From: a virus
Lineage: Duplodnaviria; Heunggongvirae; Uroviricota; Caudoviricetes
Reading direction: 5' to 3' (one strand)
IMG/VR virus record: IMGVR_UViG_3300022555_000023
Location: 72,095-114,166 of that record
DNA: 42,072 nucleotides
Shown here in pieces: positions 27,944 to 29,802 of this stretch. The notes below the pieces were generated by a model that saw nothing but the letters and a program-made list of their open reading frames with translations, was not told where the DNA came from and ran no database searches. The translations under genes and the position numbers were made by a program. Position 1 is the first letter of the stretch. Every line of letters starts with the position of its first letter.

Positions 27944-28123
27944 CTCCCGTCAACGCGAGGTTATCAAACGCCCGGCCCGCGGCTGCCCACGTCCGCTATG
28001 GGCGGGCGTCGCCGCCGCGGTGTGGCGTCGGATCCGAAGATCCGCCCCTGGCACTATTACTGGCCACCGCAGGCCGAGCTAACGACTAGACACGATGAGC
28101 TTTGCCGTGTCTATTTGTGGTAC

Positions 28124-28247
28124 GGGGCATGCCGCACGCGGCGCGGATGCTGAATAGTTACGCAGGGCGGCGGTCGCTACCGCGCAATGGAGGCGACCGA
28201 CTCGCAGCGTAGCCATTCGCCTGCGGGTTCGATCCCCGTATGCTCCA
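28124..28247 (+). ncRNA. Candidate tRNA-like RNA with an alanine acceptor stem, a T-arm and an extended rod replacing the anticodon arm
   Basis: GGGGCAT/ATGCTCC-A acceptor (G3:U70), GCGGG-TTCGATC-CCCGT T-arm, nested helices. Confidence 0.65.
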
Positions 28248-28259
28248 CATGAGGTGATC

Positions 28260-29201
28260 ATGAACGTTAAAGAAATCCTCGACCGCTTCCGTATTAAGTA
28301 CGTCACGGACGGCAAGAACACGAAGCGAGGCTGCGTAAGCATCCACTGCCCGATGTGTGGCGAAGCCGACCGCAGCGAACACGGTAATATCAGTTTGCGT
28401 GACGGCGGTTACTTCTGCTGGCGTAACAAAAACCACGGCATGAGTTTCCAACGGATCATCTCACTGCTCGCCGGCCACGAGGCGGCCCGCAGTATCGGCG
28501 AAGATGAAGGTCCGCCGCTGGAAGGTTACGAAGCCGCGGTCGCCGCGTTCATGGCCAAGGAGCATCCCGTAAAGAAATCGGTCAAGGTGATCAATTGGCC
28601 GCAGGAAGCCCGCATAATACACCCTGAAGGCGTCACGCGGGACTATTGGGATTACATGCGTTATGACCGCAAGATACCCAACCGCGATATCGCCTGGGCC
28701 TGCGACGAGTATGACCTGAAGTGTGCCGTAACCGGCAAACATGCCAATCGCATCCTGTTCCCGATTCACGACTGGGCCGGAAACATGATCGCGTTCTACG
28801 GCAGGGCGATCACCAAGTCCCGACTGCGGTACAAAGCCGAGCCCGCCGGCCCGCAGCCAAAGTGGGGCATCTTCGGACTGCCGCAGGCCAAACACGGCGG
28901 ACGAAAGCTCATCGTGAACGAAGGCCCGTTCGATGCCCTGAACCTGAACGTCTACGCTCCTCGCGGATGCTACGCGGTATCGGTGCAAACCACATCGATC
29001 ACGCCGCAGCAGAAGGTCATCCTCAACAAGCTGTCGGAGCGTTTCGATGAGGTGGTGATTCTCCTCGACCAGGCGGCGGAGGAGCAGGCTCTGGTCCTGG
29101 CCGGTCAGCTTATCCACGAGAACCGCACGGCTCTGGTTCCGGAACACCGCAAGGATCCCGGCGAGATGAACGCCGCCGAGGCGGCTACCATCTGGAAGTA
29201 G
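28260..29201 (+). CDS. dnaG: DNA primase (Zn-binding domain plus TOPRIM)
   Basis: CPMC...YFCW, RILFPIHD..G.MIAFYGRAI, IVNEGPFDAL, VVILLD. SD GAGGTG. Confidence 0.85.
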   Translation: MNVKEILDRFRIKYVTDGKNTKRGCVSIHCPMCGEADRSEHGNISLRDGGYFCWRNKNHGMSFQRIISLLAGHEAARSIGEDEGPPLEGYEAAVAAFMAKEHPVKKSVKVINWPQEARIIHPEGVTRDYWDYMRYDRKIPNRDIAWACDEYDLKCAVTGKHANRILFPIHDWAGNMIAFYGRAITKSRLRYKAEPAGPQPKWGIFGLPQAKHGGRKLIVNEGPFDALNLNVYAPRGCYAVSVQTTSITPQQKVILNKLSERFDEVVILLDQAAEEQALVLAGQLIHENRTALVPEHRKDPGEMNAAEAATIWK

Positions 29202-29274
29202 AAAAGGCCGACGAGGTGTTTGCCGAGACATCTTCGTTCATGGTAGATGTAGTCCCGGCGTGCAGTCGGCCTAG

Positions 29275-29650
29275 TGGAGGCGGCGGGGATCGAACCCGCG
29301 TCCCGCGACATTTCCGATCAAGCGTCTACGTGTGTAGTCGATCCTATTTGCAAGCTGTCGTCTCGCGATCCCCGGATCAACAGGGTTGTCGTTCGACCAG
29401 CCGGTAGCATTTTTAATCCACGGCGTGACCAGCAGCGACCGTGAACGATCCGAGTTTACAGCCGGCTTTTGAACCTCTCGGATGGGTTCGCAGTCGGCTC
29501 GTGGTTATTAGGCCACGAGGGCGAAGGCCGGAGCCTTCTCGAACTTGTTTTTGGCAAGTAAGTTTTTGGTCGGCTATTAACGTGGCCTGCTGACCAACCA
29601 CGACACGCAACTCAATCTTCTAGCTGCCCGGTCGAATCCAATTCGCCCCC
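29275..29650 (-). ncRNA. ssrA: tmRNA (one-piece); tag peptide (A)AKNKFEKAPAFALVA
   Basis: 5' GGGGGCGAATTGGATTCGAC and 3' GACGCGGGTTCGATCCCCGCCGCCTCCA (G3:U70; CCA not encoded). Tag ORF 29555-29511 ends in TAATAA. Confidence 0.95.
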
Positions 29651-29728
29651 GGTTGCCGACAATCTGCTGCCGTCCCGCACGCTGTCGGCGTTCGTGCGGG
29701 CGACCTAACCTAGCCTGATGGCTACGAG

Positions 29729-29802
29729 TGGCGGAGACAGGATTTGAACCTGCGACCTTGAGATTATGAATCTCATGAGCTACCGGACTGCTCCACTCCG
29801 CG
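29729..29802 (-). tRNA. tRNA-Met (CAT) with an initiator-like body
   Basis: CGCGGAG TGGAGCAGTCCGGTAGCTC A TGAGA TTCATAA TCTCA AGGTC GCAGG TTCAAAT CCTGT CTCCGCC A; anticodon at 29766-29768. Confidence 0.93.

Follow-up and report, generated by a model that had tools for sequence, protein, structure and literature searches.

What is the 124-nt tRNA-like RNA gene that lies directly before the primase of an uncultured freshwater phage, at 28124-28247 on the plus strand of the 42,072-nucleotide stretch of phage DNA analysed here (the window)? A first-pass annotation had described it as an anticodon-less tRNA-like RNA with full alanine identity, and our analysis bears this out: the acceptor and A73 are invariant, the stems covary, and neither Rfam nor ARAGORN makes a call. 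Much of that description can be read directly in the sequence, namely the acceptor GGGGCAT/ATGCTCC with G1-C72, G2-C71, G3:U70 and A73, the T-arm GCGGG-TTCGATC-CCCGT, and a long helical rod at the position of the anticodon loop; a tag ORF and the tmRNA D-loop signature GGATTCGAC are both absent, as it had said. In what follows we call this element the window copy, and the homologous element of a second phage lineage the L009 copy.

The element runs from G1 to the discriminator A73. Our covariance model, R1, gives 142.8 bits on the window copy and 140.8 bits on the copy of the second lineage, and with it the element is found to be single-copy in the genome. All features of the element lie on the plus strand. 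The acceptor 5' strand GGGGCAU (28124-28130), whose G3 pairs with U70, has its partner at 28240-28246, all seven pairs being identical in both lineages; the acceptor 3' strand AUGCUCC and A73 together occupy 28240-28247, and CCA is not encoded (CAU comes next). The alanine identity set is complete, with G3:U70, A73, G2:C71 and G4:C69 in a 7-bp acceptor stacked on the T-arm, and it is the same in both lineages. The T-arm, GCGGG-UUCGAUC-CCCGU (28223-28239), has a canonical T-loop that is conserved at 7/7 positions. Could the element instead encode a protein? There is no ORF common to both lineages across the element on either strand, any reading frame being broken because single-nucleotide indels separate the two copies, and a protein-coding element was ruled out on these grounds.

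The element sits in a 316-nt divergent intergenic region. On the minus-strand side is an operon of a DnaB-like helicase and two ORFs without significant Pfam match, and on the plus-strand side is the ORF of a DnaG-like primase (28260-29201 (+), 313 aa, with a weak Pfam DNAG_N match and homologues P0001-P0023). The motif GTGTCT lies 11 nt upstream of G1 (28107-28112 (+)), with the same 11-nt spacing in L009, and a divergent copy lies at 28088-28093 (-). This motif is strand-specific, with 23 occurrences in the window, most of which precede a start codon by 20-35 nt and point in the same direction as the gene; it is promoter-like, and probably serves as a promoter of the phage. An apparent inverted repeat ahead of the element consists of the two divergent GTGTCT copies, which stand back to back, 13 nt apart, and look like a bidirectional promoter for the helicase-side operon and for a unit made of element and primase. 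Farther upstream, the 13-mer CTGGCACTATTAC at 28048-28060 (+) is conserved in a lineage without the element (L129:2922-2934) and does not fit sigma-54 spacing. On the other side, A73 is followed after 4 nt by the Shine-Dalgarno-like GAGGUGA of the primase (28251-28257 (+)), and the distance from A73 to the primase ATG is 12 nt in the window copy, which includes this Shine-Dalgarno sequence, and 24 nt in the relative. Between element and primase we find no terminator and no convincing sigma-70 promoter.

Downstream of the primase, outside the element, lie a full-length one-piece tmRNA (29272-29650 (-), placed by ARAGORN at 29274-29650, tag AKNKFEKAPAFALVA, 166.6 bits with Rfam RF00023) and a tRNA-Met (about 29728-29802 (-), also found by ARAGORN). 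These two are all that ARAGORN reports in the window and in the whole 112.5-kb record, and Rfam concurs. At the same locus in two related lineages both genes are missing, and a Pro-kumamolisin-activation/S8-type peptidase gene is there instead.

How widely is the element distributed? An identical primase occurs on about 20 freshwater or lake metagenome contigs, one of them 192.5 kb long; the element is identical in all of them, and shows no differences among contigs from four DNA runs. A homologue, likewise 124 nt long to the nucleotide, is found at the corresponding position in a second lineage (L009, L137-L144; primase identity 65%), where the order is GTGTCT, 11 nt and the element, followed by 24 nt and the primase ATG. 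In a third lineage (L129-L136, L150; primase 71% identical) synteny is kept and the element is absent, GTGTCT being followed by 9 nt and then the primase ATG. There is a fourth arrangement, with an HNH endonuclease ORF immediately upstream of the primase; it is seen in a sub-lineage of the 71% primase cluster (L011:1-200, L145, L146, L151), where the end of an HNH_3 homing-endonuclease-like ORF overlaps the primase start and the intergenic region has been replaced. The element is present in two of the three lineages with a readable intergenic region. Since the sister lineage whose primase is 71% identical lives without it, the element is accessory and dispensable and, judging by the synteny, is an insert between the GTGTCT motif and the primase start.

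Searches farther afield returned no further copies: R1 has no match in 80 IMG/VR loci of distant primase relatives (23-34% identical), pattern scans of IMG/VR and of GTDB genomes gave only ordinary or insert-bearing tRNA genes, and all 34 matches of a pattern scan of JGI metagenomes were rejected by R1. In the remaining members of the primase cluster the element is absent, or the contigs are too short or come without DNA. The neighbourhood also varies in other respects. In the L009 lineage, the gene divergent from the element encodes a HAD_SAK_2 protein (L009:2704-3165 (-) and L137:2354-2815 (-), 82 bits), the HAD domain of the 'Swiss-army-knife' RNA-repair proteins. This neighbour is specific to that lineage; an unrelated ORF takes its place in the window phage, and the gene is also missing in the element-less lineage. 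HAD_SAK_2 has no match in the 112-kb record, in a search whose control run matched no control genome either, so that this negative carries no weight. The DnaB-like helicase of the element-less lineage (L129:1-1759 (-), with equivalents in L130-L133) has 949-969 aa and contains an intein with a LAGLIDADG endonuclease domain, and the window helicase has 535 aa and is without an intein.

A position between divergent replication genes, the DnaB-like helicase operon and the primase, might suggest that what is conserved here works as DNA, for instance as a replication origin or a priming signal, its likeness to a tRNA being incidental. We regard this as most improbable. The conserved G:U pairs, the strand-specific T-loop, G3:U70 and A73 make sense only as plus-strand RNA, R1 gives 39 bits on the minus strand versus 143 bits on the plus strand, and the sister lineage replicates without the element.

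Comparison of the two element-bearing lineages is informative because they have diverged far: at four-fold degenerate sites of the primase they are 48% identical, so that neutral positions are near saturation. Against this background, the conservation of the element is a mosaic, in which some parts are invariant, others have changed with compensation, and the distal rod helix is drifting. Identity is complete in the acceptor stem and A73 (14/14 and 1/1), in the T-loop (7/7) and in two blocks of the rod, GGGCGG and GCAGCG (6/6 each), and close to complete in the D-loop (6/7) and the rod tip CCR-CGCAA-UGG (10/11). The T-stem is identical at 4/10 positions with all pairs kept, and the distal rod helix at 6/24. 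Such a mosaic is what one expects for a structured RNA.

The two copies can be folded together. RNAalifold returns a cloverleaf of 31 pairs, all 31 of which are paired in both copies. Double-sided changes are found in 6 of these pairs: one in the D-stem (a compensatory C-G to U-A change), one in rod stem 1 (where a wobble change is also seen), two in the T-stem (G-C to C-G and G-C to A-U), and two in the distal helix, these last being dependent on the alignment. Another 5 of the 31 consensus pairs show wobble changes. In a control in which the 3' partners were slid by 1-3 columns, pairing fell to 30-48% and double changes to 0-1. We consider the covariation supportive and not statistically decisive, because there are only two distinct sequences and the structure was derived from the same two. 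The minimum free energy of the window copy is -62.9 kcal/mol (z = -2.6), and the L009 copy has z = -2.15; taken alone, these predicted z-scores are modest and suggestive. Drawing on the divergence between lineages as well as on the fold, we conclude that 28124-28247 (+) does contain an RNA gene, and one that selection maintains.

Comparison also corrects the fold. The first-pass annotation had placed a hairpin GCCG-CACG-CGGC at the D position, which can be drawn in the window copy, but in the relative it has only 3 bp and no covariation. Similarly, the proposed helix GCGGATG/CATTCGC, with a 7-nt bulge CTGAATA, does occur in the minimum free energy fold of the window copy, but it cannot form in the second lineage. 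In the comparative fold, the D-arm (28132-28146, RNAalifold consensus) has a stem CCGC/GCGG, which is CCGU/ACGG in the relative, and a 7-nt loop ACGCGGC with A14- and G18G19-like bases (ACRCGGC across the two copies); a 2-nt linker and rod stem 1 follow. Rod stem 1 is GCUGAAU/AUUCGCC in the window and GCCGAAC/GUUCGGC in the relative, with a core pairing UGAAU/AUUCG that becomes CGAAC/GUUCG and can be extended to 7 bp with one C-C mismatch in the window copy. This revised stem frees GCGG to pair with CCGC as a 4-bp D-stem. In both copies the cloverleaf lies 3-5 kcal/mol above the minimum free energy; for tRNAs it is common that the true cloverleaf lies above that minimum.

The rod (28149-28221 in the comparative fold) is a 73-nt irregular helix in place of the anticodon arm. 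Stem 1 is followed by GUUACGC/GCGUAGC, by the conserved junction of GGGCGG and GCAGCG, and by a variable distal helix CGGUCGCU/GGCGACCG, which forms in both copies even though its sequence has largely changed. At the tip hairpin of the rod lies a block CGCAAUGGAG (28183-28192), which is 10/10 identical across the lineages while the flanking helix has diverged. This block occurs once in the genome, where it has no complementary target, and an antisense search with the rod as a whole gave chance 9-13-mers only.

How close does this bring the element to a tRNA? When the part of the rod beyond stem 1 is exchanged for a 7-nt loop, ARAGORN at default stringency calls a tRNA in both lineages, the isotype reported mirroring only the arbitrary loop that we supplied. 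On the comparative fold, then, the molecule is a tRNA cloverleaf with an irregular helix of about 59 nt in place of the 7-nt anticodon loop. Its acceptor GGGGC.../...GCUCCA matches the first five pairs of bacterial tRNA-Ala (RF00005), and it has the 7-bp acceptor, GG-containing D-arm, 5-bp T-stem, T-loop UUCGAUC and cloverleaf geometry of a canonical tRNA. Unlike a canonical tRNA, it is without a 7-nt anticodon loop, U33 or an anticodon; the loop at the tip has 5 nt (CGCAA), and the sequence of the D-arm is unlike that of tRNA-Ala. The linkers differ too: acceptor and D-arm, usually joined by U8 plus N9, are separated by 1 nt in the window copy and directly adjoin (0 nt) in the relative, and 2 nt join D-arm to rod. 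Since the first of these is so short, the tertiary core may differ from that of a real tRNA. Ahead of the T-arm, the junction consists of a single U in the window copy and of CUU in the relative. The element, lacking an anticodon and carrying too long an arm, cannot take part in normal decoding.

An ordinary tRNA gene is also rejected by the gene finders. ARAGORN in default, intron and relaxed modes gives nothing credible at the element, RF00005 calls neither copy at gathering or at E ≤ 10, and the bases flanking the rod supply no shared anticodon. The likeness of the upper half to a tRNA, as seen by ARAGORN on the shortened copies, together with tRNA-Ala genes elsewhere that have inserts of about 50 nt (L207, L245, L248), leads one to consider a decaying tRNA-Ala pseudogene whose anticodon loop has been interrupted by an insertion, or else a tRNA whose insert is spliced out to leave a decoding molecule of about 67 nt. 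We hold both to be very unlikely. A degenerate pseudogene without covariation, the outcome that was to count against the original description, would not keep all its pairings by compensation while neutral sites have saturated, as the second-lineage copy does, and the insert is common to both lineages. As for splicing, the flanking bases (AUAGUU.. versus ACUGCU..) give no conserved 7-nt anticodon loop or anticodon, and the intron mode of ARAGORN finds nothing credible. A group I intron would need a far longer insert, and bacteria are not known to have any other tRNA splicing system.

The remaining comparison with a familiar molecule is with tmRNA, whose tRNA-like domain (TLD; RF00023) shares with the element the alanine identity, the T-arm and a helix at the position of the anticodon stem. 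The element differs from tmRNA in being without the mRNA-like domain, pseudoknots, resume codon, GGAUUCGAC-type unpaired D-loop and GGAC-type junction, and in having a true D-stem. The Rfam search that had been proposed along with the first description yields nothing but noise for either copy, whether at gathering or at E ≤ 10, and RF00023 in particular matches neither copy even at E ≤ 10, in a test whose positive controls were the phage tmRNA at 166.6 bits and the TLD-only gene of mycobacteriophage DS6A at 43.2 bits. The lack of an RF00023 match and of a tag ORF, together with a D-stem that is paired where tmRNA has the GGAUUCGAC-type loop, ruled out a recognisable tmRNA or TLD; once corrected, the fold comes nearer to a tRNA cloverleaf proper than to the TLD of tmRNA. 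The first-pass annotation had also called the T-arm nearly identical to that of the tmRNA 1 kb away. The window copy does have 16 consecutive bases of its T-arm in common with that tmRNA, but the likeness holds for the window lineage only: in the relative the T-stem is another one, and its contigs, of 8-11 kb, contain no tmRNA.

The same annotation had presented the element as belonging to a class that it did not recognise. This overlooked tag-less 'TLD-only' genes, which are documented for DS6A (PMC4131195, PMC11915505). Hudson, Lau and Williams list DS6A as a 'TLD only' tmRNA carrier, and report that a molecule similar to that of DS6A strongly inhibits tmRNA, perhaps through titration of SmpB (PMC4131195). 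A 2025 paper on the tmRNA database counts nine 'Standard, no CDS' forms and states that the DS6A form inhibits endogenous tmRNA in E. coli (PMC11915505). We located the DS6A TLD-only gene at L148:28478-28560 (+) in JN698994, as 83 nt between gp33 and the DNA pol III gene. It is unannotated in the GenBank record and lies about 120 nt upstream of the DNA pol III gene. In DS6A, an RtcB-like RNA ligase gene immediately precedes the primase gene.

The likeness between the two elements is considerable. Both are phage-encoded, combine a canonical T-arm with a 7-bp acceptor that has G3:U70 and A73, are without anticodon, tag frame or encoded CCA, and lie in the replication module just ahead of a gene for replication, which is that of DNA pol III in DS6A and of the primase here. 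They differ in length (83 nt in DS6A, 124 nt here) and in the D region, which is an unpaired tmRNA-type loop in DS6A and a paired stem with a GG loop in the element. The element also has the 73-nt rod and its invariant tip, and of the two RF00023 matches only the DS6A gene. R1 gives 23.7 bits on the DS6A gene because the alanine acceptor and T-arm are common to both, and nothing more. Since DS6A passes the tmRNA test and the element fails it, the element resembles the DS6A kind without being a detectable member of it.

Is the element nevertheless a highly diverged tag-less tmRNA, which titrates host SmpB to block trans-translation as reported for DS6A? Its layout of alanine acceptor, T-arm, helix for anticodon loop and no tag ORF fits, as do the DS6A precedent with its weak R1 match and, in the window lineage, the 16-nt T-arm identity to the phage tmRNA. 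We find this improbable all the same, given that neither copy is matched by the tmRNA model where the DS6A gene is, and given the real D-stem and the missing GGAC-type junction. Moreover, a general SmpB sponge would also inhibit the complete tmRNA of the window phage itself, the T-stem of the relative is unlike that of any nearby tmRNA, and smpB is among the candidate partner genes that we did not find in the 112-kb record, part of a 192-kb genome, the others being those for TROVE, the CCA-adding enzyme and RtcB.

Its placement raises a different possibility, that the element is a purely cis-acting leader, whose fold guides cuts by RNase P and 3' processing. These cuts would determine where the primase mRNA begins, how stable it is or how it is translated, and the excised RNA would be functionless. 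Plant mitochondrial t-elements, tRNA-like structures that define mRNA ends, provide a precedent (PMC1920247). As with t-elements, a tRNA-like fold flanks an mRNA and cutting by tRNA-processing enzymes is expected; here the fold abuts the primase mRNA with no terminator between, in both lineages. In both, the promoter-like motif stands on one side of the element and the primase start on the other, and where the element is absent the motif stands almost directly before the primase ATG, which also fits such a leader. However, placement alone does not discriminate, since phage tRNA genes are commonly embedded in mRNA operons, and an acceptor/T-arm minihelix would suffice for processing. T-elements are degenerate and have no need of aminoacylation identity, whereas the element keeps the full alanine set and a sequence-invariant tip. 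The invariant G3:U70, the full acceptor, the D-loop GG, the rod tip and the GGGCGG/GCAGCG junction would all be left unexplained, and we judge a purely cis-acting role unlikely.

A further family was compared for its architecture. In the bacterial YrlA (Y RNA-like) RNAs, a tRNA-like module is joined to a protein-binding stem, and the element likewise continues from a tRNA-like upper half into a long helix where the anticodon loop would be. The topology, however, is reversed, YrlA ending in the long stem with its acceptor closed. A Y RNA was rejected on this reversed topology together with the lack of a TROVE gene in the 112-kb record and of any Rfam match.

From the sequence, conserved structure, selection and genomic placement of the element, we infer its transcription, processing, charging and target as follows. 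The reading to which we give about even credence is that this phage gene is functional and encodes an alanine tRNA mimic that does not decode, is cotranscribed with the primase, is excised by the host and acts in trans. Transcription would start from the GTGTCT-type phage promoter, and the primase transcript would carry the element in its 5' portion. RNase P, the CCA-adding enzyme and EF-Tu all accept acceptor/T-arm minihelices as substrates, and host tRNA enzymes could excise the element by an RNase P cut at G1, 3' trimming after A73 and addition of CCA, which would leave the primase mRNA with a short leader containing the Shine-Dalgarno sequence. G3:U70 with A73 is the major determinant for AlaRS, and the released RNA would be recognised, and probably alanylated, by host AlaRS through these nucleotides. 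The mimic would most likely work in trans on a host factor that recognises the alanine acceptor and T-arm, either competing as a ligand or serving as a decoy, candidate targets being AlaRS, EF-Tu, the trans-translation machinery and tRNA-directed defence, and the invariant rod tip CGCAAUGGAG may provide a second, specific contact. A function beyond processing is indicated because the acceptor sequence with its wobble pair, the D-loop GG and the 10-nt tip are all kept, and RNase P alone needs none of them.

What does this mean more generally? Phage tRNA look-alikes that carry the marks for alanine charging without decoding are increasingly found, and the only role reported for such mimics is the inhibition of tmRNA by the DS6A form. 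Anticodon-less alanine tRNA mimics are thus a kind already known from a few phages, of which, on structural comparison, the element is a structurally different build: it shows that such mimics are not all stripped-down tmRNAs, with a full cloverleaf and a conserved extra arm that coexist with a complete phage tmRNA and are wired into the primase transcript. We suggest, tentatively and with more doubt than assurance, that it represents a new structural class, not derived from tmRNA, in which a complete alanine cloverleaf has its anticodon loop replaced by a conserved rod with a sequence-specific tip and is built into the 5' leader of the primase. In such a class, host processing, and possibly charging, would both release a trans-acting alanyl-RNA and mature the primase mRNA, while the rod tip would recruit a specific partner. 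Should the RNA be charged and act in trans, it would suggest a phage strategy directed against AlaRS, EF-Tu, ribosome rescue or tRNA-directed defence. A role confined to cis would instead make it a bacterial-virus counterpart of the organellar t-elements.

Enlarged tRNA-Ala-like genes turned up elsewhere in the course of the searches. A Parcubacteria MAG contig (CAJAQL010000022.1) has a 124-nt tRNA-Ala-like gene at L207:7744-7867 (+), with normal acceptor, D- and T-arms and an anticodon-arm insert of about 50 nt whose sequence is unrelated to the window rod (R1 26.9 bits). In the Brevibacillus MAG JAKFCU01, two 128-nt tRNA-Ala(UGC)-like genes (L245:2009-2136 (-) and L248:4303-4430 (+)) have a hairpin of about 55 nt at the position of the variable arm, and an R1 match of 27.1 bits at L245:5864-5974 (-) may be a further tRNA-Ala-like copy.
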